A DNA stretch of 64,000 nucleotides from an uncultured Enterobacteriaceae bacterium (GCA_964509455.1 CAZDXS010000075.1:7131-71130), one strand, 5' to 3'; numbered from the stretch's first letter, positions 1,558 to 40,950 are shown. Made by a program: numbers and translations. The notes: a model not told the origin generated them from the sequence alone.

Positions 1558-2853
1558 ATGAGCGCCGGCGCAACCGCGGCGGTGCCCCACTTGACCACGG
1601 CCTTGACCGGGCCGCTGAACCTCGTGGAGAGCGCCATCCTGGCCCGGCAACCCGCCATCGAGTCCTGGTTCCGTTCGCAGTGGCGGCGCACGCCGGCGCC
1701 GTTCTACGCCTCCGTTGACCTGCGCAACGCCGGCTTCAAGATAGCGCCCATAGACACCAACCTGTTCCCGGGCGGGTTCAACAATCTCAACCCGGCGTTC
1801 GAACCCCTGTGCGTGCAGGCCGTCCAGTCCGCCATAGAGCGCCTGCCGGCGCCGGTGGACCGCATCGCCATCATCCCCGAAAACCACACGCGCAACCGGC
1901 ATTACCTGCAAAATGTGGCGGCCTTGCAACGCATACTGGAAAAAGCCGGCTTTGAAGTGCGGGTAGGCTCCCTGCTGAAAGACCTGGACGCGCCCCTGGC
2001 GCTGGACCTGGACGACGGCCATTCCCTGCAACTGGCGCCGGTGCGCCGGCAGGGCGCCGCCCTGTTCGTCGACGACTTCCGCCCGGACCTGGTGTTGCTG
2101 AACAACGACCTGTCCGCCGGCGCCCCGGAGGTGTTGCGGGACGTAGAGCAACCGGTCCTGCCCGCCCTGGGTCTGGGCTGGTCGGAGCGCCTGAAGTCCG
2201 TGCATTTTGGTTTTTACCGGGACATCGCCCAGGAGTTTGCCCAGGTGCTGGACATTGACCCCTGGCTGATTGACCCCATGTTTCGCAACTGCGGGGAAGT
2301 GGATTTTATGAAGCGGGAAGGCGAGTCCTGCCTGACCCTGAACGTGGGAGCATTGTTAGCCGAGATTCGTAAAAAATACGATGAATACGGCATCAGCGAG
2401 GAGCCGTTCGTCATGATCAAGGCGGATTCGGGCACCTACGGCATGGGCATCATGTCCGTGCACAGCGTGGAGGAGGTGAGCGAGTTGAACCGCCGCCAGA
2501 GAACGAAAATGGCCACCATCAAAGAGGGGCAGAAAGTAACCAAGGCCATCATACAGGAGGGGGTTCACACCAATGAAACCTGGGGGGCGCCGGAGATGGT
2601 GGCGGAGCCGGTGGTGTATCTGGTTGACCAAAACGTGGTGGGCGGTTTTTACCGGGTGCACCCGCAACGGACCACCCGGGAGAACCTGAACTCCCCCGGC
2701 ATGTACTTCGAGCGCCTGGCTTTCGAGGAGTGTTGCAACTCGCCCGACAAGGAGCAGTCGCCGGACGCCCACACGAATCGCTTTTACAGCTACGGCGTCA
2801 TCGCCCGCCTGGCGTTGTTGGCCGCGGCGCGGGAGGCGCACAGCCTGGGCTGA
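1558..2853 (+). CDS. gshA: Glutamate--cysteine ligase, small proteobacterial (Acidithiobacillus-type) GshA family; tentative
   Basis: The 431-aa ORF has a good RBS (GGGAGG 6 nt upstream of the ATG). Motifs FYASVDLRNAGFKIAPIDTNLFPGGFNNL are remembered from the rare GshA family of about 430 aa. The family assignment is from memory and was not checked by search. Confidence 0.6.
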   Translation: MSAGATAAVPHLTTALTGPLNLVESAILARQPAIESWFRSQWRRTPAPFYASVDLRNAGFKIAPIDTNLFPGGFNNLNPAFEPLCVQAVQSAIERLPAPVDRIAIIPENHTRNRHYLQNVAALQRILEKAGFEVRVGSLLKDLDAPLALDLDDGHSLQLAPVRRQGAALFVDDFRPDLVLLNNDLSAGAPEVLRDVEQPVLPALGLGWSERLKSVHFGFYRDIAQEFAQVLDIDPWLIDPMFRNCGEVDFMKREGESCLTLNVGALLAEIRKKYDEYGISEEPFVMIKADSGTYGMGIMSVHSVEEVSELNRRQRTKMATIKEGQKVTKAIIQEGVHTNETWGAPEMVAEPVVYLVDQNVVGGFYRVHPQRTTRENLNSPGMYFERLAFEECCNSPDKEQSPDAHTNRFYSYGVIARLALLAAAREAHSLG

Positions 2854-3720
2854 GGCGGAGCGGCCGGGCGCGGCGGCGTTCACTCCGGGCGCAGTGGCGC
2901 TCACTCGGGCGAGGCTGGGCGTGCGGCGTTCACTCCAGCCGCGGCGAGTCGCACCACGGCCCGCCCGCCACACAACGCAGGAAAGCCTGCTCCAAGTCGG
3001 GGGCGTGGAAGCGGCGGCGACAGTCCGCCGGCGCACTCCCCGAACCGCCACAGCTACGGCGTCATCGCCCGCCTGGCGTTACCGGCCGCGGCGCGGGAGG
3101 CGCACAACTTGGACTGAGGCGGAGCGGCGGCGCTCCTGCCGGGCGCGGCGGCGTTCACTCCAGCCGCGGCGAGTCGCGCCACGGCCCGCCCGCAACGCAA
3201 CGCAGGAAAGCCTGCTCCAAGTCGGGGGCGTGGAAGCGGCGGCGACAGTCCGCCAGCGTCCCCAGGCAACGGATTTTTCCCTGGTGCAACAGCGCCGCCC
3301 GGCGTTCATGCCGGACGCGGCGCGGGTTGCACACAGACTGAACCGAGAGGCGCGGCGGCGTTCACTCCAGCCGCGGCGGTTCGCGCCGTGGCCCGCCCCC
3401 AACGCAACGCAGGAAAGCCTGCTCCAAGTCGGGGGCGTTGAAACGGCGGCGACATTCCGCCGGCGTCCCCAGGCAACGGATTTCCCCCTGGCGCAACAGC
3501 GCTCACGGCAGGACGCGGCAGCGCACTCCTGCCGGGCGTAGCGGGGCGCGGCGGCGTTCAGGCCGGGCGGTAGCGCCGCCCGGCGTTCATGCCGAGCGCA
3601 GCGGTTCGCGCCGTTACCCGCCCGCCACGCAACGCAGGAAAGCCTGCTCCAAGCCGGGGGCGTTGAAGCGGCGGCGACAATCCGCCGGCGTCCCCAGGCA
3701 ACGGATTTTCCCCTGGTGCA
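2790..3720. repeat. Diverged tandem duplication of a convergent gene junction: 2 copies of the gshA 3' end and 4 copies of the ABC-ATPase 3' end (unit about 215-222 bp)
   Basis: The string acgcaggaaagcctgctccaag recurs at about 2976, 3195, 3409 and 3632. The gshA C-terminus YSYGVIARLALLAAAREAHSLG* is repeated as HSYGVIARLALPAAAREAHNLD* at about 3048-3117. On the minus strand each unit re-encodes QGKIRCLGT.ADCRRRF.AP.LEQAFLRCVAGG of the ABC ATPase. Confidence 0.85.
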
Positions 3721-4336
3721 AAAACGCCGCCCGGTCGCACAACTGCTCGGCGTCCGCCGCCAGGTGGGTGCTGAACAGGCAGGTATGCCCCTGTCGTTTC
3801 AGACGCAACAGGCAATGGCGCAGGGACAAGCGCGCCGCGGGGTCCAGCCCGCTCAGCGGCTCGTCCAGGACCAGCAACTTCTTGCCGCTCAACAGGCAAG
3901 CGGCCAACCCCAGTTTCTGCGCCGTTCCCTTGGACAAAAGCCCGGCGGGCTTGTCCAGCGCGGCGGCGTCCAAGCGCAGGCTGCGCAACACCGACGCGGC
4001 CGCCGCGGCATCGAAGCCGGCGCCGTGCAACGCCCCCATGTAACCCAGAAAGTCGCGGCCGCTGAGACAGCCGGGCGGCGCAAACTTCTCCGGCAAGTAC
4101 GCAACCTGCGCCCGGGCGGCGGGCGCGCCGTGGTCCCGCCCGAAGAGGGCAATGTCGCCGGAGGTTACGGCGTCCAGGTCCAGCAGGCACTTCAGCAGGG
4201 TGGTCTTGCCGGCGCCGTTCTCCCCCAACAACCCCAGGAACTCGCCGGCGAACACGTCCAGGTCAAGTCCCGCCAGCACCGCCCGGCCGCCGCGGCACCG
4301 GGTTACCTGCCGCAGGCGGACGGCCGGCGGCGGCAC
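3614..4336 (-). CDS. ABC transporter ATP-binding protein (ABC-2/PilH-like)
   Basis: Walker A GENGAGKTTLLK, ABC signature LSKGTAQKL and Walker B LLVLDEP are present. The start is uncertain. The ORF track extends to 4495, but that overlaps the upstream pilin gene. A GTG at 4336 lies 8 nt after the pilin stop, and an ATG at 4411 is the alternative. Confidence 0.7.
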   Translation of the reverse strand: MPPPAVRLRQVTRCRGGRAVLAGLDLDVFAGEFLGLLGENGAGKTTLLKCLLDLDAVTSGDIALFGRDHGAPAARAQVAYLPEKFAPPGCLSGRDFLGYMGALHGAGFDAAAAASVLRSLRLDAAALDKPAGLLSKGTAQKLGLAACLLSGKKLLVLDEPLSGLDPAARLSLRHCLLRLKRQGHTCLFSTHLAADAEQLCDRAAFLHQGKIRCLGTPADCRRRFNAPGLEQAFLRCVAGG

Positions 4337-8155: not shown

Positions 8156-11093
8156 TGAATGTGTCCGTGCGTTCGCCGGCGGTGAACAGGTCATCGGCAT
8201 ACAGGGTCGCGTTGTCTTCCTCGTAATAATCGGCAAGCAGGCCGGAGGAGCGCCGTTGCCCCGGCAGAGCCATGCCGGCGGCGGCCGCCAGCGCCGGCCG
8301 GTCGTCCATCACAACCGCCGGCCCGCGCACGCCTAGGCAATCGATGCCGGCCGCGCAGGCGCCGCGGCCGCCGGGCGCGAAACCGGCGGCGTAGGCGACG
8401 TAGAGCAACTGGCGCCAGCGGTTTTTTACGAACCAGTGCGGCAAATCGCCGGAGGTCTCGGCCGGGTAATAATCAATGGCGTCCGCGCGCACCGCGCCGC
8501 GAGCGCCGCGCGGCGGCACGGTCAATGCCAGCCGCGCCGCCGGGACGTCATCGTCCAGGAGTTCCAGGAGCGCCAGGGGTCTGCCGACCCGGTAAGCGTC
8601 CCCGGGCTGAAAGTCATTGTTCGCGCCGCCGTCCAGGGCCGCCACGCCCAGGGAGCGGGAGGCGACCGTCGTCACCATGCCCGCCGAGCCGTCGGCCAAG
8701 TTAAACACCGTGTCGCCCGGCAACACGCCGCGGCGCAGGAAGTCCCCGGCGGCGTCTTCCAGGACGACGGCGCTGCCGGCGCCGCCGGCCGTGCCGCCGC
8801 CGACGTCATAATGCGGCAGGGGGACGGCCGCCGGGGCGCTCGCGCAGGCGGCGCCGTACCCCAGGCAGACACTGCGTTGTCGCCGCCCGGCCGCGACCCC
8901 GACGACCTCGTTGCCCTGGTAGCGCAGGTTGAGCCGGTAACGGCGGCGGTTCACGTAACCGTGGTAAACCGCGTAATCGTCCCCCGCCCGGTAGCGGTTG
9001 GTCGCGCCGCCGTGCAACGCGGCGCTGAGCCGGGAGCCAGAGACGGCAGTCACCAGCCCGAAAGAACCATCTGTTGTGTTTTCCACCAAGTCGCCCACCC
9101 GCACGCCGGCCCGGGCGAAATCCCGGGTCGAGTCATGCAAGCGGTCGCCGCTCGCGGCGTCCGTCCTGCCGTCCAGGCGGCGCAGGGCGGCCTTGATGCG
9201 ATAACGACCGGCGGCCGCCGGGTCCGGCAACAGCGGCGCCAGCCCTTGCATGGTCAGCGCCGCGGCACCGGCGAGTCCCGTGACGACCGCGACATACGGC
9301 TCGTAGATGAGGTCGCCGCGAGCAATGCCGGCGCGGGTAAAATCCTGCGCCGGGTCCAGCAACAGGACGCTCGTGGAACCGGGCGCCGCCGTGCCTTCCA
9401 GATACGGGGCGACGGCGCTACGGCCGGCGCAATCCGCCGTGCGCGCATTGAGCCAGGCGCACCGGCCCTGGGCAGCGGCGATGCCGACCCCCCCAACGGG
9501 GGACTGGCGCACCGCCGCGGCGAGGGCGGGACGCAGGCCGGGCACGGAGCCGGTGACCACGCCGCCGGAGCGCAGACGCCAGGTCGCGGTAAAACCCGTG
9601 GGAAACACCGCGCCCGGCGTGTGTATGGCCAACATGCCCTTGCGCGCGCCGGCGCGGCCGTTGGTGCGGGGCAAGCGGTAGCCGTCGCCGGGGCGGAACG
9701 CATTGTTCCTGCCGAAATCAAGCCCGGCGACCGTCAGGGCGGCGGGGCCGGCGACGACGCCGACATGCCCCGATGAGCCGTCCGCCAGGTTTTCCACTAG
9801 GTCGCCGGGCAGCACGCCGCGAGCGATGAAGTCCCCGTGGGGGTCCGCCAGGATCAAGCCGCGGCTGCCGGCGCCGGCCGTGCCGGTGTTGCCGCGCAGG
9901 CGCCAGGATTCCCCGACGTCAAAATCGTTTTCCACGCCGCCGTGAAGGGCGGCGACCGTCAGCGACGTCCTGGTCACCGCCGCAACCGAGCCCCGCGACC
10001 CGTCGTCCAGGTTTTCCACCACGTCGCCGGCCGTCACGCCCAGCTTGCGGAAGTCCCGGGAAACGTCTTTCAGCACCCGGCCGCGGCTGCCGGCGCCGGC
10101 CGTGCCCGCCAGTGCGCGGGCCGGGTCGCGCCGCTCAATGAAATAAACGTCGCCCCGGTCAAAATCGTTTTCCAGTCCGGCGGACGGCGCGCTCAGGCGC
10201 AACGTCTTGGGGGTTACCGCCGTTACCTGCGCCACGGAACCGTCGGTGATGTTGCGCACCACGTCGTGAACGGCAATCCCCCAGTCGCCAAAGTCCGCGC
10301 CCTTGTCCGTGAGTTGCGCCGCGTTGTCGCCGCCGCTGTGGCGGCCGCGCACGATGCGGCCGGCGGCGCGCGGGTCGGCGAACGGCGTCAGCGGGGGATA
10401 GACCCCGTGGGCGGCGTAGTGGCGGGCCAGCAGGGCCCGCACCTCGTGCAACGCCCGCCGCTCCACCACCGCCATCAACTCCGCCCGGCTGACGGCCGCG
10501 ACCTGGTCGTTGCCCGCCGTGGTGGAGAACTTGCCGGCGCCCGCATCGGCGTTGCCGCCTTCCAGGTAGGCGGCGGGGTCATTGCCGGGACGCGCGTGCT
10601 GGGCGCCCACGGGCGCCCCGGGGGCGATGATCACCGCGACCATGTCGCCCACCCCGTCCAGGCTCAGCTCGCCCGGGGTCTCGCTGTTGATAATCGCATC
10701 GTTGGACTGCGCATTTTTGAAGTTGGCGGACAGGGCGTACCATAATCTCTCGCCGGCGGCGTCCCTGGGGTCGTCCAGCCCCAGGATGGTGAACGGCAGG
10801 CGCCCCAGGGTGGTGCCGGCGCCCGCCGAGCAGTTGGTTTCCGGCCTGCCGTCGTTGTTGCGGTCGGGACAGGGCAGAAAACCCGGCCCCTTCTCCTGGT
10901 TGTCGCGCAGGTCGGCGTAGTTCATCGCATAGTGCAACAGGGCGCGCCGGGCCTGGTTCAACGCCTCCTTGCTAACGGCGCGACGAGCATAGGAGCGGGC
11001 ATGCTCGTTCAGGCCGGACAGCAACGTCCAGCCGGCGCCCACCACCAGCGCCAACATGAGCGTCAGCAACGCCGCGCCGCGAGCGCGCCTCAC
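8127..11093 (-). CDS. Large pilus-associated repeat protein (MshQ-like by size and position; about 988 aa) with an N-terminal signal/anchor
   Basis: A likely GTG start at 11093 overlaps the upstream stop as GTGA. The N-terminus is VRRARGAALLTLMLALVVGAGWTLLSG. There are six internal repeats of about 60 aa with consensus DF.R.GV..GD.V.NL.DGS.G.V..V....L.V.AL.GG..N.F..GD.YR. Confidence 0.65.
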   Translation of the reverse strand: MRRARGAALLTLMLALVVGAGWTLLSGLNEHARSYARRAVSKEALNQARRALLHYAMNYADLRDNQEKGPGFLPCPDRNNDGRPETNCSAGAGTTLGRLPFTILGLDDPRDAAGERLWYALSANFKNAQSNDAIINSETPGELSLDGVGDMVAVIIAPGAPVGAQHARPGNDPAAYLEGGNADAGAGKFSTTAGNDQVAAVSRAELMAVVERRALHEVRALLARHYAAHGVYPPLTPFADPRAAGRIVRGRHSGGDNAAQLTDKGADFGDWGIAVHDVVRNITDGSVAQVTAVTPKTLRLSAPSAGLENDFDRGDVYFIERRDPARALAGTAGAGSRGRVLKDVSRDFRKLGVTAGDVVENLDDGSRGSVAAVTRTSLTVAALHGGVENDFDVGESWRLRGNTGTAGAGSRGLILADPHGDFIARGVLPGDLVENLADGSSGHVGVVAGPAALTVAGLDFGRNNAFRPGDGYRLPRTNGRAGARKGMLAIHTPGAVFPTGFTATWRLRSGGVVTGSVPGLRPALAAAVRQSPVGGVGIAAAQGRCAWLNARTADCAGRSAVAPYLEGTAAPGSTSVLLLDPAQDFTRAGIARGDLIYEPYVAVVTGLAGAAALTMQGLAPLLPDPAAAGRYRIKAALRRLDGRTDAASGDRLHDSTRDFARAGVRVGDLVENTTDGSFGLVTAVSGSRLSAALHGGATNRYRAGDDYAVYHGYVNRRRYRLNLRYQGNEVVGVAAGRRQRSVCLGYGAACASAPAAVPLPHYDVGGGTAGGAGSAVVLEDAAGDFLRRGVLPGDTVFNLADGSAGMVTTVASRSLGVAALDGGANNDFQPGDAYRVGRPLALLELLDDDVPAARLALTVPPRGARGAVRADAIDYYPAETSGDLPHWFVKNRWRQLLYVAYAAGFAPGGRGACAAGIDCLGVRGPAVVMDDRPALAAAAGMALPGQRRSSGLLADYYEEDNATLYADDLFTAGERTDTFNDQLVVVSP

Positions 11094-11880
11094 GGGACCG
11101 CTCCCGTTGCGTCCAGCACGGCGCCGCGACGCGGATCGTAGGACTGGCCGGAGCGCAGCCTCACCACCACGCCGCCGGGCAATCGGACAGCCGCCTGGTC
11201 GGCCGGGGCGCCGGTCGCCGCCGGGCACCGCGCCAGGGCCTCGCCGCCGCCGCTGAGCCAAGCGGCCGTGCGCCCGTTGCGCCCCTGGATGAAACCCCTG
11301 AACGTGATAACCGGCGCGGGTTGCGCCGTGGGCGCGGCAACGCTCGCGGCGGCGGAGCGGGCGGGGGGCGAGGCGCCGTGTTGTCCGGCGCGGCGGCGCT
11401 CGTCCAGGTATTGCCGCTCGGCGGGCATGGTGAACAGCCGTCCGGACAGCAACGTCCAGCCGGCGCCCACCACCAGCGCCAACATGAGCGCCGGCAACGT
11501 TGCGCCGCGAGCGCGCCTCACGGGACTGCTCCCGTTGCGTCCAGCACGGCGCCGCGGCGCGGGTCGTAGGACTGGCCGGGGCGCAACCTCACCACCGCGC
11601 CGCTGGGCAACTTGACAGCCATCTGGTCGGCCGGGGCACCGGGCGTCGCCGGGCGCCGCGCCAGTGCCTCGCCGCCGCTGAGCCAAGCGGCCGTGCGCCC
11701 GTTGCGCCCCTGGATGAAACCCCTGAACGTGATGACGTTCGCGGGCGCGGCCGCGGGTTGCGCCGTGGGCGCGACCAGGGGTGCGGCGGCGGAGCGGGCG
11801 GGGGGCGAGGCGCCGTGTTGCCCGGCGCGGCGGCGCTCGTCCAGATATTGCCGCTCGGCGGGCGTGGTGAACAGCCGTCC
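11030..11880. repeat. 2 diverged tandem copies (about 425 bp) spanning the lipoprotein-gene 3' end and the large-protein 5' end
   Basis: The string ccaccagcgccaacatgagcg.c.gcaacg..gcgccgcgagcgcgcctcacggga occurs at about 11041 and 11468. The C-terminus ...SYDPRRGAVLDATGAVP* is encoded twice, ending at 11518 and at 11090. Confidence 0.85.
11090..11521 (-). pseudogene. Chimeric duplicate ORF: the N-terminal signal/anchor of the large protein fused to the body of the small lipoprotein
   Basis: The translation is VRRARGATLPALMLALVVGAGWTLLSG|RLFTMPAERQYLDERRR...DATGAVP*. Its start overlaps the upstream stop as GTGA. Whether it is expressed is unknown. Confidence 0.4.
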
Positions 11881-11970
11881 GAACGGCAACGGCTCCGCGT
11901 GGGAGCAACAGGCGCACAGGGCCAGGGCCGCCAGGGCCAGGCAGCGCCGGCGGCCGCGCCCGGCACTCAT
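11518..11970 (-). CDS. Small secreted/lipoprotein-like pilus-operon protein (PilP/MshK-like by position)
   Basis: The N-terminus MSAGRGRRRCLALAALALCACCSHA is a signal peptide. The RBS GGAGAG lies 8 nt upstream. The start overlaps the upstream stop as ATGA. Confidence 0.55.
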   Translation of the reverse strand: MSAGRGRRRCLALAALALCACCSHAEPLPFGRLFTTPAERQYLDERRRAGQHGASPPARSAAAPLVAPTAQPAAAPANVITFRGFIQGRNGRTAAWLSGGEALARRPATPGAPADQMAVKLPSGAVVRLRPGQSYDPRRGAVLDATGAVP

Positions 11971-12564: not shown

Positions 12565-14193
12565 TTACGTTCCCAGGTCATGGGCGGTCGCCAGGCGCAG
12601 GGCGAACTGCGCCTGGTCCGGGGCGGCGCGGGAATCGCCTTGCAAGGCGGCGCCGGAGCCCAGGTCCAGGGGCAGGCTGAGGATCTCGACGCGGGGCGCC
12701 GGCGTCTGCTTCCGCAAGACGTCGGCGAAGCGCTTGACCAGGGCGATGGCTGCCCTGAAATCGCCGTCAAAAGGATCAATGACGCCTTCCAACAAGGCCA
12801 CGTGGGAAACCGCCCAGCCGCGGCCTGGGGATACGGCGGCGGCTGGACCGGCGGCGGGAGATGCGGCGGCGCGGCCGGGCGCGGCGGCCGTAGCCGGCGC
12901 CGCAACTCTGGCTGGGTCGGCGGCGACGCTCCAGGTCAATCGGTTCACCCGAATGTTGGGGAAACGCTCCAGCCCCTTGCTGAGCAACTGCGCCGCGGCC
13001 AGGGGAGACGACTTGTAACGCGCCAGCAACCCGGCAATATCCACCGCCGCTTTCAGGTCCGCCGGCGCCGCCGGCAGGTCCGGCAACTGTTCCCGGGCCT
13101 GCTCAATCCTGGCGGCGTAATGCTGCGCCTGGGCGGCGGCCGCGGCGGCCTGCCGTTTCAAGCTCAACCCCCGCCACAGCTCCGCGCCGCTCCAGCCCGC
13201 ACTGCCCAGCAGGGCCAGGACGCCGGCGCCTGCCGCCAAGCCGCGCAGGCGGCGCATGGAAAAATAGCGCATTTCCGCCGCGCCGGCGTAGCAGTTCACC
13301 GGGCGCCGCGCCAGCAGTTGCTGAATGAAGAACAGGTCGCTGAACGGCGCGGGAGTCGCAGGGGTAAAACCGAGCCGCGCCGCCGTCTCATCCAGGTCGC
13401 AGAAATGGCAGATGATGCTTTCCTGGCGCTGGTATTCATTACGCAACTCCCGTTGCAACTCGCCGCCCAGCAGGAAATAGACGTGCAGGGGCGCCTGCGG
13501 AGTGACCAGGCGCAACTCGTCCAGGCCGCGGCAGGTTTTTTCCAGGGCGGAATGGATGTGCGGAGCGTACGACTCGCTCCCGTAAACAGGCATCCGCGCC
13601 AGGCGGCTCAGGCGCAGCCTGCCGTTGTGGAAAAAAGACTGGCGCAGGCCGCTGACGCTTTGCAGGCTGAGCACCAACTGGTGCGCGGCGGGTGCGCCCA
13701 GCAGTTTCAGCAGGGCGCCCGTGAACAGCGGCAGTGAGTAAATGCACGCCAGCGGCGTCTTCGTCTCCTCCAGGATGCTGGTCCAGCGCCTGACCACGTC
13801 CGGCCGGGTTATCGCGGTCAGCAACACTTGGTCTTCCGTGCGCCCGGTGCGTCCGAGCAACTGGTGAAAATAATACGGCGTGTTTCTGAACAGGCGCCGG
13901 GCGCGGCGTTGCAACACGGCGCGGCGGTCGCGGCGGGATACTCGCGGAACGGCTTCCAGCCGATACTCCTCCTCGAACACGTCAACCAAGATGTAACACG
14001 GGGACGCGCCAGTCTCCTCCAGGCAACGCCGAAAATCCTCGCGGCCTGCGTCGGTCGCCTCGAACCCGCGAGCGGGCGCCAGGGCGCCGCCGCGCCAGTG
14101 GTACAGGTCCGCCCGCTGGGCGCCGATGAACAGGGCCAGACGCTCCCGCAACCCCTGCCAGGGCTCATATATCGATGCCGGCAACGAGATCAT
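12565..14193 (-). CDS. MshI-like (PilM-like domain fused to a PilN-like TM/coiled-coil domain) pilus assembly protein
   Basis: The ORF is 542 aa with an internal TM segment (LAAGAGVLALLGSAGWSGAELW) at about residue 330, followed by a coiled-coil. Operon context supports the call. Confidence 0.55.
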   Translation of the reverse strand: MISLPASIYEPWQGLRERLALFIGAQRADLYHWRGGALAPARGFEATDAGREDFRRCLEETGASPCYILVDVFEEEYRLEAVPRVSRRDRRAVLQRRARRLFRNTPYYFHQLLGRTGRTEDQVLLTAITRPDVVRRWTSILEETKTPLACIYSLPLFTGALLKLLGAPAAHQLVLSLQSVSGLRQSFFHNGRLRLSRLARMPVYGSESYAPHIHSALEKTCRGLDELRLVTPQAPLHVYFLLGGELQRELRNEYQRQESIICHFCDLDETAARLGFTPATPAPFSDLFFIQQLLARRPVNCYAGAAEMRYFSMRRLRGLAAGAGVLALLGSAGWSGAELWRGLSLKRQAAAAAAQAQHYAARIEQAREQLPDLPAAPADLKAAVDIAGLLARYKSSPLAAAQLLSKGLERFPNIRVNRLTWSVAADPARVAAPATAAAPGRAAASPAAGPAAAVSPGRGWAVSHVALLEGVIDPFDGDFRAAIALVKRFADVLRKQTPAPRVEILSLPLDLGSGAALQGDSRAAPDQAQFALRLATAHDLGT

Positions 14194-14600
14194 AAACAGG
14201 TCCCAGCACGGAGAACACGACCCAGCCGCTGAGGCCGCCCAGCACCAGGGTCAGCAACGGCTCCATGAGTGATTGCAGGTGCGCCACGGCCGCGCGGGCG
14301 GGGCGCGTGTAGAAATAGGCGACATTTTCCAGGGCGGGCGCCAAAGCGCCGTCGCGCGTGTAGAAATAGGCGACGTTTTCCAGGGCGGGCGCCAAAGCGA
14401 CGCCGCGCCTGTGGTACAGGTCCGCCCGCCGGGCGCCGATGAACGACGCCGGACGCCCCCGACACTCCGGTCGGGGCGGGCGCCAGGGCGCCGCCGCGCC
14501 AGTGGTACAGGTCCGCCCGCTGGGCGCCGATGAACAGGGCGCGGCGCTCCCGCAACCCTTGCCAAGGATCATATATCGATGCCGGCAACGAGATCATAAA
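14165..14600. repeat. Tandem duplication (about 404 bp) of the platform-gene 3' end joined to the MshI-like 5' end
   Basis: MISLPASIY.PWQGLRER.ALFIGAQRADLYHWRGGALAPA is encoded at 14193 (real) and again at 14597. ...AVA.LQSLMEPLLTLVLGGL.GWVVFSVLGPVYDLVAGIDI* ends at 14569 (real) and again at 14165. The join falls at the shared GALAPA microhomology. Confidence 0.85.
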
Positions 14601-15771
14601 CAGGTCCCAACACGGAGAACACGACCCAGCCGATGAGGCCGCCCAGCACCAGGGTCAGCAACGGCTCCATGAGTGATTGCAAGCGCGCCACGGCCTCGCG
14701 GGCGTCGCGCGTGTAGAAATAGGCGACGTTTTCCAGGGCGGGCGCCAGGGCGCCGGTGGTCTCGCCCACCCGCAACATGCGTTGCGCCAGGGGCGGAAAC
14801 AGGCCGCCGTCCGCAAAACCGTCCGCCAGGGTGCTGCCGGCCGCCACCGCCCTGCCGACGTTTTGCAAGGCCTGCTCAACGGCGCGGTTGCCGGCGATGC
14901 GCTCGCAGGCCTCCAGGCAGTCAATGACGGTGATGCCGGACGAGTACATCATGGCGAAGCAGGCGGAGACGCGCGCCAGGATGAGTTTCTCCAGCACCGG
15001 CCCCAGCACCGGCGTCTTTAGTTTCAACCGGTCCAGGGCCCGCCGGAGGCCGGGGCTGAGCCGGGCGGCGCCGGCGACCATGCCGACAAGCAACGGCGGC
15101 GCCGCTAACATCGCGTGCCAGTACTGCGTAACCCACCCCGAGACGCGGATCAACAGCCGGGTATGGACCGGCAACGTTGACCCGGTATTCTTGACGAACG
15201 TCAACAGCTCCGGCGCCAGGTAGATCATCAAGAAGAACACCGTGCCGATAACGGCGACGCCGGCGACCAGCGGGTAGATCATCAGCTTCCGAAAAGAGGA
15301 CGCTTGCTCGTCCTGCCACTTCAGGTTCTTGCCCAGCCGCTCCAGCACCCGGTCCAGCTCCCCGGCCTGCTCCCCGGCGCGCACCAGGTTGACGAACACG
15401 TCGGAAAAAACGCCCGGAAAAGCGCCCAGGGACTGGGACAGGGTCTTGCCGCCCTCTATGGCTTCCGACATGGCCGTTACGATTTCGCGCAGGCGCGGAT
15501 TGTCGGCGGCGGTGCGCAGGTCCCGCAGGCCTTCCAGCAGCGGCACGCCGGCGCGCGCCGTCTGCTCCAAGTGAAAGCAAAACAGGGCCAGGTCGCGGCG
15601 CCCCACGCGCGCGGCGCGGCGCCAGGCCGGGGCGAGCCGCAACCGGCAACTGACCAGCTCCAGCCCCATGCCGCGCAGGCGCAACTCCAAGTCGGCCTCG
15701 TTGGCGGCGTCCATGCGGCCGGTGGTCGCCCTGCCGGCCGCGCTGATCCCCTTGTAACGATAAGACGCCAT
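14569..15771 (-). CDS. Type II secretion/type IV pilus platform protein (GspF/PilC/MshG family)
   Basis: The 400-aa ORF has duplicated GspF domains and 3 TM regions. Motifs include GETTGALAPALENVAYFY. Confidence 0.9.
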   Translation of the reverse strand: MASYRYKGISAAGRATTGRMDAANEADLELRLRGMGLELVSCRLRLAPAWRRAARVGRRDLALFCFHLEQTARAGVPLLEGLRDLRTAADNPRLREIVTAMSEAIEGGKTLSQSLGAFPGVFSDVFVNLVRAGEQAGELDRVLERLGKNLKWQDEQASSFRKLMIYPLVAGVAVIGTVFFLMIYLAPELLTFVKNTGSTLPVHTRLLIRVSGWVTQYWHAMLAAPPLLVGMVAGAARLSPGLRRALDRLKLKTPVLGPVLEKLILARVSACFAMMYSSGITVIDCLEACERIAGNRAVEQALQNVGRAVAAGSTLADGFADGGLFPPLAQRMLRVGETTGALAPALENVAYFYTRDAREAVARLQSLMEPLLTLVLGGLIGWVVFSVLGPVYDLVAGIDI

Positions 15772-15777: not shown

Positions 15778-17493
15778 TTACTCGCGGCGCAGGCCGCCGC
15801 CCAGGTCCACGACGCGGGCAATCTCTTCGAGGCTGGTGACGCCCTCCAGGACCTTGGCGACGCCCATGTCCGCCAGCGGCTGAAAGCCTTTTTCCAGGGC
15901 CGCCCGCGCCAGTTCCCGGGGCGTTGCCCGGCGGGCGACCAGCTCGTCCAGGTCCGGGTCGAAAGGCAGGATCTCCATCAGCGCCAGGCGCCCCCGGTAG
16001 CCCTGCCCGGCGCAGGCGCGACAACCCCTGGCGCGGTACAGGACCGGCGGCTCCGCCGCCTGCGGCCGCCCCGCCAGGGCGCACTCCGCCGCGGCGGCCG
16101 GCGCCGGTTCCCGACACTCCTCGCAAAGCCGCCGCACCAGCCGTTGCGCCGCTGCGCCGCTGACGTTGCCCGCCAGCACGTCCGACTTGATGCCCAGGTC
16201 CAGCAACCGGGGAACGGCGCCCACCGCCGAGTTGGCGTGCAACGTGGAAAACACCTGGTGGCCGGTCATGGCGGCGCGCAACGCCATGGAGGCGGTGTCT
16301 TCGTCGCGAATTTCGCCCACCAGGATAATGTCCGGGTCCTGGCGCATCATGGAGCGAATGCCGTTGGCGAATCCCAGCCGGGACTTCTCGCTGACCGCGG
16401 TCTGCCGAATCATGGCAGCGGGGTATTCCACCGGGTCCTCCAGGGTCATAATGTTGACGGACTCGGAGTTCAAGTGGTGCAAAATCGAGTACAAGGTGGT
16501 GGTTTTGCCGCTGCCGGTGGGGCCGGTCACCAGCACCAGTCCTTCCGGGCGCGCCATGATGCGCTTCAATGCCGCCAGCTCAGCGGCCGCCAGCCCCAGC
16601 TGCTCTAAGGCGAGAATGCCGCGATGGCGGTCCAGGATGCGCAGGACAATGTTCTCGCCGTGCAAGGTGGGCAGCGTCGACACGCGAAAATCCACCTGGC
16701 GGCCCGCCAGCGACAGGGAAATGCGCCCGTCCTGCGGTGCGCGGGTCTCGGCAATATCCAGACCCGCCATTACTTTCAGGCGCACCGCCAGGGCGGACCA
16801 GTAGTTGCGGTGCAGGCTGCGCACCTGCCGCAACACGCCGTCAATGCGGTAACGGAAACGCAGGAACCCCGCCTCCGGCTCGAAGTGCACATCGGAGGCG
16901 GAGCGCTTGACCGCATCCGCCAACAGCGCGTTGACCAGGCGCACCACCGGCTGGCTGTACTCGTCGCTCTCGGCGGACAGGCTCTGGTGATCTACTTCGC
17001 CCGTCTCTATTTCGTGCAAGATGCCGTCAACGGACAGTTCGAAGCCGTAGAAGCGGTCAATGGACTTTTCGATTTCGGCCTCGCCGGCCAGCACCGGCGC
17101 CAGCTCCGCCGCGCCCGCCAAGTGGGCGTTGAGCTGGTCCAGGACCACGATGTTGAACGTGTCCGCCATGGCCACCGTCAGCACGCCGGCGGCGGGGTCG
17201 TGGGTGACCGGCGCCACCCGCAGGCGCCGCGCCAGCTCCTCGGGAATCATGGCGATGGCCTCGCTGTCCGCCACGACGCGATTCAGATCAACGCGCGGCC
17301 GCCCCGCCACGCCGCTGATGACGTCGTGAATGACGGCCTCCGTGGCGAACCCCAGGCGCACCAGGATCTTGCCCAGCAACTCCCGGGTGCGCCGTTGCTC
17401 CGTCAAGGCGATTTCCACCTGGTCGGAGGTGACAATGCCCTTGCGGAGCAGCATCTCCCCCAGGCGCAGCGGTTGCCCGGCGGCGCCGCTCAC
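15778..17493 (-). CDS. GspE/PilB/MshE-family secretion ATPase
   Basis: Walker A GPTGSGKTTTLYS, the Asp box, the His box and the C-terminal tetracysteine CRAC....C..C motif are present. A GTG start overlaps the upstream stop as GTGA. Confidence 0.9.
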   Translation of the reverse strand: MSGAAGQPLRLGEMLLRKGIVTSDQVEIALTEQRRTRELLGKILVRLGFATEAVIHDVISGVAGRPRVDLNRVVADSEAIAMIPEELARRLRVAPVTHDPAAGVLTVAMADTFNIVVLDQLNAHLAGAAELAPVLAGEAEIEKSIDRFYGFELSVDGILHEIETGEVDHQSLSAESDEYSQPVVRLVNALLADAVKRSASDVHFEPEAGFLRFRYRIDGVLRQVRSLHRNYWSALAVRLKVMAGLDIAETRAPQDGRISLSLAGRQVDFRVSTLPTLHGENIVLRILDRHRGILALEQLGLAAAELAALKRIMARPEGLVLVTGPTGSGKTTTLYSILHHLNSESVNIMTLEDPVEYPAAMIRQTAVSEKSRLGFANGIRSMMRQDPDIILVGEIRDEDTASMALRAAMTGHQVFSTLHANSAVGAVPRLLDLGIKSDVLAGNVSGAAAQRLVRRLCEECREPAPAAAAECALAGRPQAAEPPVLYRARGCRACAGQGYRGRLALMEILPFDPDLDELVARRATPRELARAALEKGFQPLADMGVAKVLEGVTSLEEIARVVDLGGGLRRE

Positions 17494-17680
17494 GGCCGCT
17501 GCGCTCCGCCCCAGTCAACGCGGCAATGCGCCGGGCGACCTGCCGCCTGTTGATGCGCCGCTGCCCCGTCAGGGCGCCCAACCTGGCGGTCAGCGACCAT
17601 GCCCTTGCGGAGCAACATCTCCCCTAGGCGCAACGGTTGCCCGGCGGCGCCGCTCACGGCCGCTGCCCTCCGGACAAGGC
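17437..17680. repeat. 2 diverged tandem copies (about 162 bp) spanning the TPR-gene 3' end and the ATPase 5' end
   Basis: gtgagcggcgccgccgggcaaccg.tgcgcct.ggggagatg.tgctccgcaagggcat occurs twice on the minus strand, at 17493 and 17657. The upstream copy makes a 56-aa chimeric ORF. Confidence 0.8.
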
Positions 17681-20079: not shown

Positions 20080-20199
20080 GGGGCTCCCTTGTCTTCCTCA
20101 TGCGGCGGACCAAAGGTCGCGCCAACCCTACGAATGGGGGGCAGTATACACGGGGCTTTTGCGCATTGCAAGTAAAATTTTCGGCGGGGCGGGATGTAG

Positions 20200-20440
20200 C
20201 GGGCGGCGCTCGCCGGAGGCGGAAACGGTGCTACGGCACACGGCTCAACCCGATGCCGGGGCCGGGAACGGCGGCGGGCGGCGCTCGCCGGGGGCGGAAA
20301 CGGTGCTACGGCACATGGCTCAACCCGATGCCGGGGCCGGGAACGGCGGCGGCGCAACGGGTCGCTCCGGGCGGCCGGGAGCGGGCCGGCGGCGGCCGGC
20401 GGCCGGGCGCGGCAGCGCGCGGCTCAGCCCGATGCCGGGC
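20200..20440. repeat. About 71-bp direct repeat (2 full copies and 1 partial) derived from the 3' end of the EamA gene
   Basis: gcggcgctcgccgg.ggcggaaacggtgctacggcaca.ggctcaacccgatgccggggccgggaacggcgg occurs twice. The copies resemble the EamA stop region tcagcccgatgccgggcgcag. Confidence 0.75.
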
Positions 20441-29954: not shown

Positions 29955-30094
29955 CTACTCTCCCCCGCGAGTTACAAAAAGGTCCGCGGACGCCTGCCAG
30001 TATAGTACTGTTTGTCAATATGTCAACTCACTCACACAAGCCTGTCCGCGCAACACCCACTGATATCGCCCAGCATGGGCATCGTTACGCAGAA

Positions 30095-31849: not shown

Positions 31850-32035
31850 GCCGGACAAGACGCACCCGACTCTGGGGCAGGTCCCGGGGACGGTCGATGT
31901 CGCGCCGCCGGATAGCCGGCGCCGTTCCTAATGCGCTCCGTGCGGGTGCGCGGCCGGACAAGATACGCCTGACCCTGGGGCAGTCCTCCGGGAGCAGACG
32001 CTGTTGGCCGTCGGGCTACGGCGTCTGCCGCCCCT
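31850..32035. repeat. Degenerate duplicate(s) of the DUF2064-transferase 3' end downstream of the real stop
   Basis: On the minus strand ...RRRDIDRPRDL.. is encoded at 32034-32120 (real) and again at about 31873-31925. Confidence 0.6.
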
Positions 32036-32672
32036 ACCCGTTGCGGCTCCAGGCGGGCGGCCGCCAGGCCAGATGCGCCAGGTCCCGGGGGCGATCAATG
32101 TCGCGCCGCCGCGGCAACTCGCACACTTTCAACTGCAACCGCGCCGCCCGCGCCCGGGTGCGCCGCAGCACCGTGCCGCTCCCCCAGTCAATGCCGCTGA
32201 ACAGCGGTTCGTGCAGTCGGCTCATGCCCGCCAGGTAATAACCGCCGTCCCGGGTCGGCCCCAGCACGAGGTCGCAACCGCCGCGCAGTTGCGCCAGCGC
32301 CAGGTCAAGGTCGGCGGCGGCCAGGTCGGCGCAGTCGCTGCCCACCAGCACCGCGTGGCGATACTTGCCCAGGGCCTGCCGCAGGGCGATGCGCATGCGC
32401 TCGCCCAGGTCGCCGCCCCGTTGGCGCACCGGCGTCAGGGCGAAGCGGCGGGCATATTCAGACAGCGCACGATGCCGGGCGGTGGGGGCGCACCACAACT
32501 CTATATCCGTCAGCGCGGAGCGCCGCGCCGTCTCCAGGGTGCGCCGCAACAGGTAGTTGTGGAGCGCGGCGGCGCGCGCCGCGCCCAGAACGGGAACCAG
32601 GCGGGTCTTGACCCGGCCCGGCACGGGTGCGCGGGTGAAGACCAGCAACACCGCATCTTGCTCAGCCGTCAT
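32034..32672 (-). CDS. DUF2064 nucleotidyl/glycosyl-transferase-like protein (radical-SAM/selenodomain-associated 'transferase 1' family)
   Basis: The start is taken as MTAEQDAVLLVFTRAPVPGRVKTRLVP. It lies two genes downstream of the rSAM/Cys-rich protein, beyond the GT2 gene. Confidence 0.65.
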   Translation of the reverse strand: MTAEQDAVLLVFTRAPVPGRVKTRLVPVLGAARAAALHNYLLRRTLETARRSALTDIELWCAPTARHRALSEYARRFALTPVRQRGGDLGERMRIALRQALGKYRHAVLVGSDCADLAAADLDLALAQLRGGCDLVLGPTRDGGYYLAGMSRLHEPLFSGIDWGSGTVLRRTRARAARLQLKVCELPRRRDIDRPRDLAHLAWRPPAWSRNG

Positions 32673-33415
32673 GCAGCACGCACGGGGACGGCGCAGGACG
32701 CGGGGCGGGCGCCGCGGCGCAATGGGGACCGCTGCCGTGACGCCGGGCGCGCAACAGCGGCGCAACACGGCCGCCGCCGGGCAACGGAAACAGGCCGCGG
32801 GCGGAAGTCCCGGATTGTCGCCGTGGACGTCGCGCCGCGGCGCGAACGACGACCGCCGCCGCCCGCCCCGACTCAGTCATACTGCCGCGCCAGGGCGGCG
32901 GGGTTCGCCCCCAGGGCGTACCAGCCGCGCAGCTTCCACCTCAGCAGGATGGTCCTGATGACGCCGTGCGTCATGCAGCACGCACGGGGACGGCGCAGGA
33001 CGCGGGGCGGGCACCGCGGCGCAATGGGAGCCGCTGCCGTAACGCCGGGTGCGCAACAGCGGCGCAACACGGCCGCCGCCGGGCAACGGAAACAGGCCAT
33101 AGGTGGAAGCACCGGGCCGGCGCGCCCAGGGCGGGAACCAGGCGGGTCTTGACCCGGCCCGGCACGGGTGCGCGGGTGAAGACCAGCAACACCGCATCTT
33201 GCTCAGCCGTCATGCAACACGCACGGGGACGGCGCAGGAACGCGGGGCGGGCGCCGCGGCGCAATGGGGACCGCTACCGTGACGCCGGGCGCGCAACAGC
33301 GGCGCAACACGGCCGCCGCCGGGCAACGGAAACAAGCCGCGGGCGGGCGCCCCGGATTGTCGCCGTGGACGTCGCGCCGCGGCGCGAACAACGACCGCCG
33401 CCGCCCGCCCCGACT
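32673..33415. repeat. 3 diverged copies (about 240-300 bp) of the GT2-3'/intergenic/DUF2064-5' junction
   Basis: ILL.WKLR.WYALGANPAALARQYD* is encoded ending at 33415 and again at 32873. MTAEQDAVLLVFTRAPVPGRVKTRLVP is encoded starting at 32672 and again at about 33212. The motif gcagcacgcacggggacggcgcagga... occurs three times. Confidence 0.85.
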
Positions 33416-34089
33416 CAGTCATACTGCCGCGCCAGGGCGGCGGGGTTCGCCCCCAGGGCGTACCAGCAACGCAGCTTCCACATCAGCAGGATGGTCCTGG
33501 CGACGCCGTGCGTCTCCCAGCGGCGCGCGGAACTCAACGCCGGCTGCTCCATGCGCACCGGCGGCGCCAGCCGCCGGAGCCGGGCGCACAGCTCGATGTC
33601 TTCCATCAACGGCAGATCCGCGTAACCGCCCAGCCGCTGAAACAACCGCCTGCCCACAAAAATCGCCTGGTCGCCGGTGGCGATGCGGGTGAGGCGGGAA
33701 CGCAGGTTCATCAGCGTTTCAATGCACCGGAACACCGGGCGCTCACTCGCCAGGCGGGCGGTGAACCAGCCCCAGTTCTCTGCGCCAACCCGGCGCTGGT
33801 TCAGTGCCAAGTCAAAATCCCCAGGCAACAGGGTGTCCGCATGCAGAAACACCAGGACGGCGCCGGCGGCGCGGGCGGCGCCCCGGTTCATCTGCCGGGC
33901 GCGGCCCGGCGCACATTCCAGCACCTGGTCCGCCTGGTTCGCGGCCGCCGCGACAGTGCCGTCGACGCTGCCGCCGTCCGCCAGCAACACCTCGCAACCC
34001 CGCCGCCGGGCGGCTTGCAGGCGCTCTAAGGTCGCTCCCAAGCAACCAGCCTCGTTGCGTGCTGGGATGATGACCGAGTACCGCGGCAT
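33415..34089 (-). CDS. Family-2 glycosyltransferase (radical-SAM/selenodomain-associated 'transferase 2' family)
   Basis: The sequence begins MPRYSVIIPARNE and contains the DXD-type region LADGGSVDGT. The start overlaps the rSAM stop. Confidence 0.75.
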   Translation of the reverse strand: MPRYSVIIPARNEAGCLGATLERLQAARRRGCEVLLADGGSVDGTVAAAANQADQVLECAPGRARQMNRGAARAAGAVLVFLHADTLLPGDFDLALNQRRVGAENWGWFTARLASERPVFRCIETLMNLRSRLTRIATGDQAIFVGRRLFQRLGGYADLPLMEDIELCARLRRLAPPVRMEQPALSSARRWETHGVARTILLMWKLRCWYALGANPAALARQYD

Positions 34090-39619: not shown

Positions 39620-40777
39620 ATGATCGAGGCACGGACTTTCGTGGAAGCCGCGGCGGAGCGCGGGTTCAGCCGTTACGTCGGCGTTCCCTGTTCCTACCTT
39701 ACGCCTTTCATCAACTACGTCATCAACGACCCCGGGCTGGACTACGTCTCATCCGCCAACGAGGGGGACGCGGCGGCGACGGCGGCGGGACTGGCTACGG
39801 GCGGCGAACGCGCCATCGTGATGTTGCAGAACTCCGGCCTGGGCAACGCGGTGAACCCCCTGACCTCCCTGGCGATGGTGTTCGACGTTCCCATGTTGCT
39901 CATCGTCACCCACCGGGGCAAGCCGGACCAAAAGGATGAGCCGCAACACCAGTTGATGGGACGCATCACCACGAACCTGTTCGAGCTGATGGAGATCCCC
40001 TGGGCGCCGTTTCCCGCCAGGGCGCAGGAAGTCCCCGCGGCGCTGGACCGGGCCGACCGGTTCCTGCGGGAGCGGCAACAACCTTACGCCCTGCTCATGG
40101 AGCGAGACACGGTGTCTCCCCACCCCCTGGAGGGGGAAGCCGTTCCCAGCCGCGCCGGCGCCGCCTGCCGGCGGCAACGCTTTCCGGGCGGGGAAGACGC
40201 CGAGCTGGTCTCCAGGCAAGCGGCCCTGCGGGAGATCGTGCGTTGCGCGCCCCTGGAAAACGCCGTGGTGATAGCCACCACCGGCTACACCGGGCGGGCA
40301 CTGTACGCGCTGGAAGACCGCAACAACCAGCTGTACCTGGCGGGCTCCATGGGTTGCGCCTCGGCGTTCGCCCTGGGGCTGGCCCGGGCGCACCCGGACC
40401 TGGCGACGGTGGTCATCGACGGCGACGGCGCCGCGCTCATGCGCCTGGGCAATTTCGCCACTCTCGGCAGTTACGGAGCGGACAACCTGGCGCACATACT
40501 GCTGGACAACGAGATGCACGAATCGACCGGCGGCCAGGCCACAACGGCCGCCAACGTGGAGTTTGCCGACCTGGCGGCGGCCTGCGGTTACGGGCTGGCT
40601 TTCAGCGGCCGCAACCCGGCATTGATCGGGGCGGCCTGCACTGCTGACGGGGTGAACGGGGCCCGTTTTGCGCACCTGAAAACAGCGCCGGGAACGCCCG
40701 CCGACCTGCCGCGCCCGCAAATAGCGCCGCGAGACGCGTTGCGGCGGCTGATGGCGCACATCGGCGCCGCTTTTTAG
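39620..40777 (+). CDS. Phosphonopyruvate decarboxylase (TPP-dependent, sulfopyruvate-decarboxylase-like)
   Basis: The ORF is 385 aa. The N-terminal TPP-Pyr region reads GVPCSYLTPFINY. The C-terminal TPP-PP region contains GDGAALM. It lies immediately downstream of PEP mutase. Confidence 0.75.
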   Translation: MIEARTFVEAAAERGFSRYVGVPCSYLTPFINYVINDPGLDYVSSANEGDAAATAAGLATGGERAIVMLQNSGLGNAVNPLTSLAMVFDVPMLLIVTHRGKPDQKDEPQHQLMGRITTNLFELMEIPWAPFPARAQEVPAALDRADRFLRERQQPYALLMERDTVSPHPLEGEAVPSRAGAACRRQRFPGGEDAELVSRQAALREIVRCAPLENAVVIATTGYTGRALYALEDRNNQLYLAGSMGCASAFALGLARAHPDLATVVIDGDGAALMRLGNFATLGSYGADNLAHILLDNEMHESTGGQATTAANVEFADLAAACGYGLAFSGRNPALIGAACTADGVNGARFAHLKTAPGTPADLPRPQIAPRDALRRLMAHIGAAF

Positions 40778-40950
40778 CGCTGGCCAGCGCCAGCTCCCGA
40801 ATAAACCGCAACAGCGCCGGGAACGCCCGCCGACCTGCCGCGTCCGCAGGTAGCGCCGCGAGACGTGTTGCGACGGCAGACGGCGCACAGCGGCACCGCA
40901 CTTAGCGCCGCCCGGCGCCGGGGCTTGCGCAACCGGTCGGCAGCTCTCGA
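40660..40950. repeat. 2 diverged copies (about 145 bp) of a convergent junction (decarboxylase 3' end plus dxs 3' end)
   Basis: agcgccgggaacgcccgccgacctgccgcg.ccgca..tagcgccgcgagacg.gttgcg.cggc and ctc.cgaataaaccgcaaca.cgcc each occur twice. Confidence 0.8.

Follow-up and report, generated by a model that had tools for sequence, protein, structure and literature searches.

Why should the ends of neighbouring bacterial genes be repeated in the space between them? We analysed a 64,000-nucleotide stretch of DNA (the window) from an uncultured gammaproteobacterium, in which the ends of the flanking genes are tandemly duplicated at ~40% of the gene-gene junctions over 43 kb. Bacteria are generally held to form tandem duplications often and to lose them soon, and fixed, diverged ones are rare. 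Literature searches returned no description of such a junction-duplication pattern, nor any paper naming the sequencing runs drawn on below.

Diverged tandem arrays at gene junctions

Tandem Repeats Finder, a repeat finder and self-BLAST of the window called the arrays concordantly, with copies lying head-to-tail (Table 1). An earlier reading of the sequence alone (the sequence-only reading) had listed 11 duplicated loci and proposed a self-comparison; all three methods recovered the direct repeats, and nine of the 11 are clear diverged tandem duplications, with copies 77–97% identical. The remaining two did not stand as described: the DUF2064 3' end holds only a weak relic, and the giant-gene site at 30.1 kb has no junction duplication. 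Locus J, upstream of dxs, was absent from that list; the corresponding spacer of the relative described below is shorter by about 170 bp.

Table 1. Arrays and relics, with positions counted from the first nucleotide of the window. Relay ORFs are the reading frames through the relics that are defined in the text.
Locus	Duplicated segment	Position	Strand	Copies, units and identity	Joint microhomology	Further positions
A	convergent gshA(+)/ABC ATPase(-)	2786..3734	.	gshA 3' end two copies, ABC 3' end four; relics 80–92% identical to functional copies		gshA 3' end: functional 2786–2853, relic 3050–3133; ABC 3' end: functional 3574–3727, relics 2917–3070, 3142–3295, 3349–3502
B	pilin 3'/permease 5'; pilin C-terminal ~96 codons plus first 20 permease codons	6611..7666	-	three copies, 357/330/360 bp, 86–94%	CGG	relay ORFs 7360 to 7034 (108 aa), 7030 to 6677 (117 aa); functional pilin end 7364, permease start 6673
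C	lipoprotein 3'/MshQ-like 5'	11014..11891	-	two copies, 428-bp unit, about 92%	CGG	relay ORF 11521 to 11090 (143 aa; 27 N-terminal MshQ-like residues fused to about 116 C-terminal lipoprotein residues), GTGA overlap at either end
D	T2SSF (platform) 3' end/542-aa protein 5' end	14072..14755	-	83–94%; 404-bp offset = about 262 bp plus nested 91- and 51-bp duplications	see text	relay ORFs 14597 to 14190, 14572 to 14165
E	TPR 3'/MshE 5'	17388..17741	-	two copies, unit about 165 bp, 82%	1–2 nt	relay ORF 17657 to 17490 (55 aa), GTGA overlap at either end
F	EamA stop region plus downstream spacer	20199..20440	-	75-bp unit; two copies 97% identical, third copy diverged		real EamA stop at 20424, in third copy
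G	GT2 3' end, spacer and DUF2064 5' end, nested duplications	32577..33521	-	units 541, 302 and 240 bp; 93–96%	GACG	
H	pgi stop region plus first 20 nucleotidyltransferase (NT) codons	36874..37227	+	three 110-bp copies, 88–96%	CGGC/GGCGGC	relay ORFs 36899–36934, 36931–37044, 37041–37154
I	convergent Ppd(+)/dxs(-)	40681..40919	.	two copies, 87%; unit ~151 bp originally, 129 bp now that the dxs relic has lost 22 bp	AAC(A)	
J	non-coding region upstream of dxs	42806..43254	.	two short duplications, offsets 212 and 128 bp		
DUF2064 relic	weak, old; downstream of DUF2064 stop	31850..32111	-	91% over 33 nt		31878–31910 versus 32079–32111
Giant-gene site	40–116-nt similarity to C-terminal regions of two giant repeat genes; not a tandem junction duplication	30.1 kb				

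Each array is built solely from its own flanking gene ends, with no cross-locus matches in the self-BLAST of the window. Dispersed intergenic repeats of the REP or MITE kind were rejected, as no element recurs at unrelated sites. Rfam and tRNA scans of the window found two tRNAs only, both outside the repeats.

To set the density in context, the identical scan was applied to 80 orthologous MshE loci from other Proteobacteria (1.37 Mb, GC 0.38–0.70), which yielded 2 such events. By the same criteria the first 43 kb of the window hold 7 junction loci, and about 11 in total. The excess claimed by the sequence-only reading is thus real, at roughly 100 times the density of comparable bacterial loci, and its proposal of a lineage-specific process is supported. 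These figures cover one 64-kb window of a 73,288-bp contig from a probable metagenome-assembled genome, and density along the window is uneven, with junction duplications absent from its last 21 kb.

Ancestral state and assembly

A relative of ~94% nucleotide identity was found in Logan, where public SRA sequencing runs are each assembled automatically into contigs, among runs other than that of the window. Its junctions are single-copy at TPR/MshE (locus E, contig L083), pgi/NT (locus H, contig L081) and Ppd/dxs (locus I), the related-strain comparison for which the sequence-only reading had called. The single-copy ancestral state is shown at these three loci. Four of the relative's eight contig ends lie inside loci A, D, F and G, which suggests that it shares the duplications there. 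Species-representative genomes scanned with MshE contained nothing nearer than 71% amino-acid identity and served solely as the background set. A metagenome scan with the T2SSF protein gave 61% identity at best and so added no other member of the lineage. A contig index gave no exact match to the Dxs, MshE, GshA or Pgi protein of the window, and a protein search with the permease gave no orthologue from the relative, the next match being 57%.

The two halves of an array differ in how far they have moved from the relative. Orthologues of window and relative diverge by 5.8/3.4/10.8% at codon positions 1/2/3, and by about 10% at four-fold sites. At locus E, mismatches number 7 in 105 sites (6.7%) for the functional MshE 5' end and 25 in 103 (24%) for the relic. 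Since the relic value exceeds the four-fold one, either the duplication is older and the relative has lost it, or change has been accelerated.

Could co-occurring strain variants have been strung in series, or false tandem copies made by the assembler? The source is probably a metagenome-assembled contig, copy divergence of about 3–18% is comparable to strain differences, and false haplotypic duplications in assemblies likewise appear as tandem, slightly diverged copies within a contig. Strain alleles, however, should differ chiefly at third codon positions, whereas pooled differences between functional and relic copies number 62:62:82 over positions 1/2/3. Unlike false haplotypic duplications, the copies are non-allelic and differ near-uniformly across codon positions; every array has novel microhomology joints, relics carry frameshifts and deletions, and relic halves lie farther from the relative than functional halves do, as at locus E. 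Independent contigs also break at the arrays, those of the relative at the four loci named above and a same-strain Logan contig, made by another assembler and 100% identical to the window, at 17637, exactly at the edge of the locus E repeat. Locus E contains a 33-nt exact repeat (17470–17502 and 17634–17666), and if this repeat has two contexts in the reads, 17637 is the required break of a unitig at k=31, which we take to be the Logan setting. The novel joints themselves are crossed by no independent contig. We regard an assembly or strain-mixture origin as very improbable, and the sequence-only reading's remark that diverged copies are not an assembly collapse is supported by the copy identities. 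Machine-generated repetitive sequence was rejected as well, given the contigs in a public sequencing run that are 100% identical to the window. So high a density of junction-spanning duplications speaks for a genome that evolves in an unusual way, and not for an artefact.

Decay of redundant copies and continuity of reading frames

The redundant halves decay near-neutrally. In comparison with the relative, conservation is confined to the retained functional halves; the substitution spectrum comprises T>C 39, C>T 38, G>A 33, A>G 31 and A>C 17, with no A>T, and the functional-versus-relic transition:transversion ratio is about 1.8, without adenine bias. A diversity-generating retroelement, or other targeted cassette mutagenesis, was rejected because substitutions are not adenine-specific. 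Protein-level selection on the chimeras was rejected on the pooled codon-position counts.

These counts and the near-neutral decay also tell against a proposal of the sequence-only reading, selection for variant gene-end cassettes, under which copies would be retained as a reservoir of variant C termini or as functional small chimeric proteins. In its favour, locus B has two truncated, promoterless pilin C-terminal copies directly behind the pilin gene, resembling the silent pilin cassettes (pilS) of Neisseria; differences there run 14:6:23, lowest at codon position 2, and the chimeric ORFs are all open at coupled junctions. The locus B counts nevertheless fit a constrained functional copy paired with a neutral relic (no significant difference, p about 0.1), and the chimeric proteins have no homologues outside the source contig, their protein clusters holding only NCBI members of that contig. 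Unlike pilS, the same architecture recurs at TPR/MshE and at the housekeeping junctions pgi/NT, Ppd/dxs and gshA/ABC. Retention as cassettes or new genes is accordingly very unlikely, and pilS-like antigenic variation by silent cassettes was rejected, since the arrays are not confined to a surface protein and decay near-neutrally.

At all five tightly coupled co-directional junctions (B, C, D, E and H), the relics form an unbroken relay ORF that runs from the upstream stop to exactly the next start codon. The chance probability is 0.37 x 0.33 x 0.53 x 0.34 x 0.10 = 0.002, a statistic devised post hoc and subject to the caveat that at 70% GC long ORFs arise readily. Indels at coupled junctions keep the frame (-30, -3; +3, -11, -1; -3), the first pair being those of locus B; indels at uncoupled or convergent loci break it (-22, +1, -1, and at A many that are not multiples of 3). 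The in-frame chimeric ORFs that the sequence-only reading described thus hold up as predicted reading frames, but its dismissal of translational coupling was too hasty in light of relay ORFs at every coupled junction. The pattern suggests that selection acts on ORF continuity rather than on protein sequence.

Origin of the junction arrays

We put at about 70% the probability that the arrays are fixed microhomology-mediated duplications that survived at junctions, decayed near-neutrally and, in coupled operons, passed a filter for relay ORFs. Ancestral breakpoints carry short direct repeats, 3–6 nt at B, C, G, H and I and 17–18 nt at D, where every joint falls within the repeat GGCGCCCTGGCGCCCGC, which codes for GALAPA in both genes; at E the joint microhomology is merely 1–2 nt. 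Short-homology tandem duplication, as the sequence-only reading had proposed, agrees with the direct copies, the microhomology at their joints and the single-copy relative. Duplications of 75–540 bp would most likely form between short GC-rich direct repeats, through slipped replication, a switch of template or unequal exchange. One that ends in two different genes, or in spacer, would spare an intact copy of each gene, and one within a single gene would disrupt it and be purged. Survivors would sit at junctions because only a boundary-spanning duplication leaves both genes intact. After fixation, the outer halves would stay functional and the inner, redundant halves would become pseudogene relics; at locus H, the fully redundant middle copy has diverged most. 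In coupled operons a second filter may apply, under which a duplication or a later indel persists only if the relay ORF stays open, presumably because such a frame maintains translational coupling or spares the downstream gene from polarity. The lineage would continuously gain and lose duplications, which could build up through frequent formation, weak removal or both. Relaxed purifying selection is one hint at the cause.

The location at gene ends invites another account, in which local template switching follows breaks or stalled forks where transcription or translation terminates, or at operon junctions, and duplications form preferentially at gene ends. All 11 events contain a gene boundary or fall in spacer, and several loci have been struck repeatedly, with four copies at A and three at B, D, G and H. 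A survivorship filter alone, however, is expected to leave the identical fixed pattern, and an existing tandem repeat offers long homology for more unequal exchange, so that repeat hits are expected too. The break points lie 60–370 nt within genes at ordinary GC-rich microhomologies rather than at a shared motif or at stop or start codons. Of the gene-end targeting in the sequence-only reading, the location stands and the targeting itself is unneeded; we consider it unlikely. Purifying selection could thus shape where structural mutations survive and thereby imitate a targeted process.

Fixed duplication followed by decay has partial counterparts elsewhere. Microhomology-mediated tandem duplications have reportedly been described in Schizosaccharomyces pombe and E. 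coli, and are mostly transient and subclonal, with identical copies. The arrays resemble them in being head-to-tail segments bounded by a short direct repeat, with a single-copy ancestor, and in being reversible through recombination between copies; they differ in being fixed, diverged and present at a large share of the junctions in the 43-kb stretch. In the tandem duplication-random loss of animal mitochondria, a boundary-spanning duplication leaves one functional copy of each gene and the others become pseudogene relics in spacer. Redundant copies decay in the same manner here, but only gene ends are involved, gene order is unchanged, and the genes stand in operons on a bacterial chromosome.

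A broader claim, which we advance tentatively and think doubtful, is that the lineage is in a heritable hyper-duplication state, in which junction duplications are a main mode of change across the chromosome and selection keeps the relay ORFs of operons. The cause could then lie in defective or peculiar replication or repair, or in tandem repeats being removed very inefficiently. Were the window typical, the chromosome would be expected to hold relics in numbers of the order of a thousand, and duplication of about four junctions in ten would show how drastically a natural lineage can tip the balance between gaining and losing them. Relay ORFs would hand ribosomes from the stop codon of one gene to the start codon of the next and so provide a naturally occurring record from which the rules of translational coupling could be read; if their pattern held genome-wide, operon junctions would accept insertions only with ORF continuity to the next start codon. 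Chimeric ORFs, if expressed, would be steadily supplied as raw material for new genes, and those of the window, which look expressed and join the N terminus of one protein to the C terminus of its neighbour, illustrate a plausible route.

Diverged tandem copies at gene junctions

Tandem Repeats Finder, a direct-repeat finder and self-BLAST of the window all agreed in placing diverged head-to-tail copies at nine loci (units 75–541 bp, identities 77–97%). In these arrays, the outer halves form the functional gene copies and the redundant inner halves are relics. The tandem duplications that the sequence-only reading had described across gene junctions are thereby confirmed, and its gene names match the Pfam annotation of the flanking ORFs. 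Nine of its listed loci are clear; the entry 3′ of DUF2064 is weaker, since that downstream region holds only a decayed relic of 33–63 nt, and its "relic" at 30.1 kb is not a tandem junction copy. Array J was absent from its list.

Repeat arrays in the window and the relay ORFs that run through their relics (from upstream stop to downstream start)
Locus	Flanking genes or position	Repeat array	Relay ORFs
A	gshA/ABC ATPase (convergent)	2786-3734	
B	pilin/permease	6611-7666	7360->7034; 7030->6677
C	lipoprotein/MshQ-like	11014-11891	11521->11090
D	T2SSF/542-aa protein	14072-14755	14597->14190
E	TPR/MshE	17388-17741	17657->17490
F	EamA 3′	20199-20440	
G	GT2/DUF2064	32577-33521	
H	pgi/NT (nucleotidyltransferase)	36874-37227	36899->36934; 36931->37044; 37041->37154
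I	Ppd/dxs (convergent)	40681-40919	
J	non-coding, upstream of dxs	42806-43254	

Relics are present at about 40% of junctions in the first 43 kb of this bacterial chromosome stretch, which is part of one contig of a metagenome-assembled genome. For a background, we scanned 80 loci centered on the MshE gene of other Proteobacteria (1.37 Mb in total, GC 0.38–0.70) under criteria identical to the window's: offset of 1500 bp or less, length of 70 bp or more and identity of 80% or more. This yielded 2 events, against 7 junction loci in the first 43 kb of the window (about 11 overall). The density thus exceeds bacterial expectation, as had been proposed, and the background loci did not show the equal frequency that would make it a trivial property; high GC alone is therefore not the source of the pattern. 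Literature searches turned up no account of anything similar.

The two ends of each duplicated segment always lie in separate genes or in a spacer, and one intact copy of each flanking gene is left. A duplication inside one gene would disrupt that gene, so survivors would sit at junctions. Because purifying selection alone suffices to give this location, at co-directional and convergent junctions alike, the targeting to gene ends suggested earlier is unnecessary, although fixed events alone are also compatible with it.

Several neighboring features were recorded. Two giant repeat-protein genes, alike on opposite strands (21792–29954, minus strand, 2720 aa; about 49000–59650, plus strand), contain many 81-bp (27-aa) and 171–201-bp internal repeats. 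The 81-bp periodic repeats (21.8–30 kb and 49–59.6 kb) are ordinary protein repeats, separate from the junction duplications. Over 116 nt, the fragment at 30035–30150 is 75% identical to the opposite strand of 54620–54735, and over 40 nt it is 80% identical to the C-terminal end of the first giant gene (21811–21847). This short stretch thus resembles C-terminal regions of both giant genes and appears to be a stray fragment of their family, located upstream of the first one. The window also carries tRNA-Leu(CAA) (21378–21464, minus strand) and tRNA-Arg(CCT) (35128–35204, plus strand). A long EamA ORF starting at 21458 runs through the tRNA-Leu gene, and the real EamA start must therefore lie further downstream. 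Between dxs and the next gene, the non-coding motif GGCAGGCCGGCGATGCATAACGGAAAA occurs in two copies (43076–43126 and 43204–43254); it has no Rfam match and is conserved in a relative (L085, about 7000–7060).

Single-copy junctions in a relative and the joints of the duplications

In the protein collection, the window's proteins are products of one NCBI contig of 73,288 bp. Outside that contig, the nearest Pgi homologue reaches only 63% identity, and the closest MshE in species-representative genomes, from uncultured Gammaproteobacteria, is 70–71% identical. Cluster look-ups of the window proteins led to Logan contigs of other sequencing runs; such contigs are assembled automatically from single public SRA runs. 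Contigs L084 and L087 (run SRR16090826) are 100% identical to the window; L081/L082, L083, L085 and L086 (runs SRR23238410 and SRR23264968) come from a relative with about 94% nucleotide identity. Nothing closer than these contigs was found in JGI metagenomes.

The comparison with a related strain that the earlier reading had called for found three junctions single-copy in the relative: pgi/NT and TPR/MshE, each with an ATGA overlap, and Ppd/dxs, with the genes 20 bp apart. Aligned with this single copy, the window in each case carries two or three copies of a single contiguous segment. We infer that the duplications are real and derived. Contig L084, from the same strain as the window, terminates at window position 17637. 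At locus E, the two copies share only one exact repeat that reaches 31 nt; it is 33 nt long (17470–17502 and 17634–17666), and 17637–17667 is the last 31-mer unique to its right-hand context. With the k=31 that Logan assembly uses, a unitig has to break at 17637 if, and only if, the reads contain both contexts. Among the relative's contig ends, four of eight lie within loci A, D, F and G, which make up about 14% of the first 43 kb, and one relative contig end lies exactly 30 nt inside the D repeat edge. These four loci are probably common to the relative, and E, H and I would be either younger or lost there through recombination between copies.

Measured against the relative's single copy, the ancestral break points carry short direct repeats, CGGC/GGCGGC for pgi/NT and AAC(A) for Ppd/dxs. 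With the functional copies as reference, the repeats are CGG (loci B and C), GACG (G) and, at D, one of 17–18 nt. In both genes the D repeat, GGCGCCCTGGCGCCCGC, codes for GALAPA; three successive duplications made use of it. The short-homology, lineage-specific mechanism put forward earlier is supported, and it matches microhomology-mediated tandem duplication. In evolutionary terms the pattern follows the tandem-duplication-random-loss model known from mitochondrial genomes, and locus B superficially resembles silent pilin cassettes. Unlike all three systems, the relics here are fixed and diverged, involve gene ends only and occupy this large a share of junctions in a bacterial chromosome.

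Near-neutral decay of the redundant copies

Compared with the relative, the outer, functional halves have stayed conserved, unlike the redundant inner ones. For the MshE 5′ end at locus E, the functional version shows 7 mismatches in 105 sites and the relic 25 in 103; at locus H, divergence is greatest in the middle copy, which is wholly redundant (88% identity to the relative versus 94–96% for the outer copies). Pooled across loci, functional-versus-relic differences fall 62:62:82 over codon positions 1, 2 and 3, with equal site numbers at each; the transition:transversion ratio is about 1.8, without any adenine bias. Thirteen orthologues shared with the relative (L081, L083, L085 and L086) differ by 5.8, 3.4 and 10.8% at the same positions and by 9.9% at four-fold sites. 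The redundant DNA is decaying near-neutrally. Allelic strain variants as a source of the differences are disfavored by this contrast in codon-position distribution, and the spread of relic differences likewise speaks against proteins under selection. Selection for gene-end cassettes, an earlier suggestion, is not supported by such decay.

The MshE 5′ relic (17554–17657), whose duplication is absent in the relative, differs from the relative by 24%, above the roughly 10% at four-fold sites, which would favor an old origin followed by loss, or accelerated change.

Position-2 divergence is about 0.34 of four-fold divergence across the 13 genes, a higher ratio than is usual in free-living bacteria, and for two strains this closely related the non-synonymous share is unusually large. 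This ratio would fit weak purifying selection, under which DNA of slight cost could be retained. More frequent formation, or inefficient removal by recombination, is equally possible as the cause of the many duplications; the genes that bear on this choice lie outside the window.

Two retained genes have altered ends. The functional ABC ATPase gene stops at 3614–3616, about 13 codons before its own relics (3142–3502) and the relative's gene (L086), with TTA where these have GGC or TGG; the retained copy was therefore shortened since duplication. The dxs C-terminus (40900–40925 versus L081:7277–7301) extends about 8 residues further in the window than in the relative, and the dxs stop now shares bases with that of the Ppd relic (CTTAG, read from either strand). 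A stop-codon shift accompanies the duplication.

Relay ORFs at coupled junctions

Five junctions (B, C, D, E and H) are co-directional and tightly coupled. In each, the native overlap with the upstream stop contains a relic start codon from which a relay ORF runs. These ORFs close either by overlapping the next start as ATGA or GTGA or 3 nt short of it. When random junction-spanning duplications were simulated on reconstructed ancestral junctions, the chance of a relay outcome was 0.37, 0.33, 0.53, 0.34 and 0.10, respectively (joint 0.002, a statistic devised after seeing the data). Later relic indels leave the frame intact: −30 and −3 (B), +3, −11 and −1 (C) and −3 (H). At locus E, the gaps in the copy-to-copy alignment (+2, +5, −6) do not add up to whole codons, but the ORF nevertheless stays uninterrupted over its full length. 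In relics at convergent or uncoupled junctions, indel lengths are not divisible by 3 (I, −22 and +1; G, −1; A, many).

Relic amino-acid sequence drifts freely, and with the frame preserved this points to a constraint on ORF continuity rather than on chimeric proteins. Such a constraint would concern ribosome delivery to the downstream start or avoidance of polarity. Translational coupling, dismissed in the sequence-only reading, is thus likely to constrain the relics after all, given relay ORFs at all five coupled junctions.

The native T2SSF/542-aa gene overlap spans 29 nt in different frames (14165–14197 and 14569–14597), and this long overlap was copied with the duplication. At 36899–36934, an 11-codon mini-ORF (MTAAAAPAPAA) joins the pgi stop to the NT start via two ATGA overlaps; a 1-nt difference in the relative fuses it in frame to NT, which is called there at 258 aa versus 246 aa in the window.
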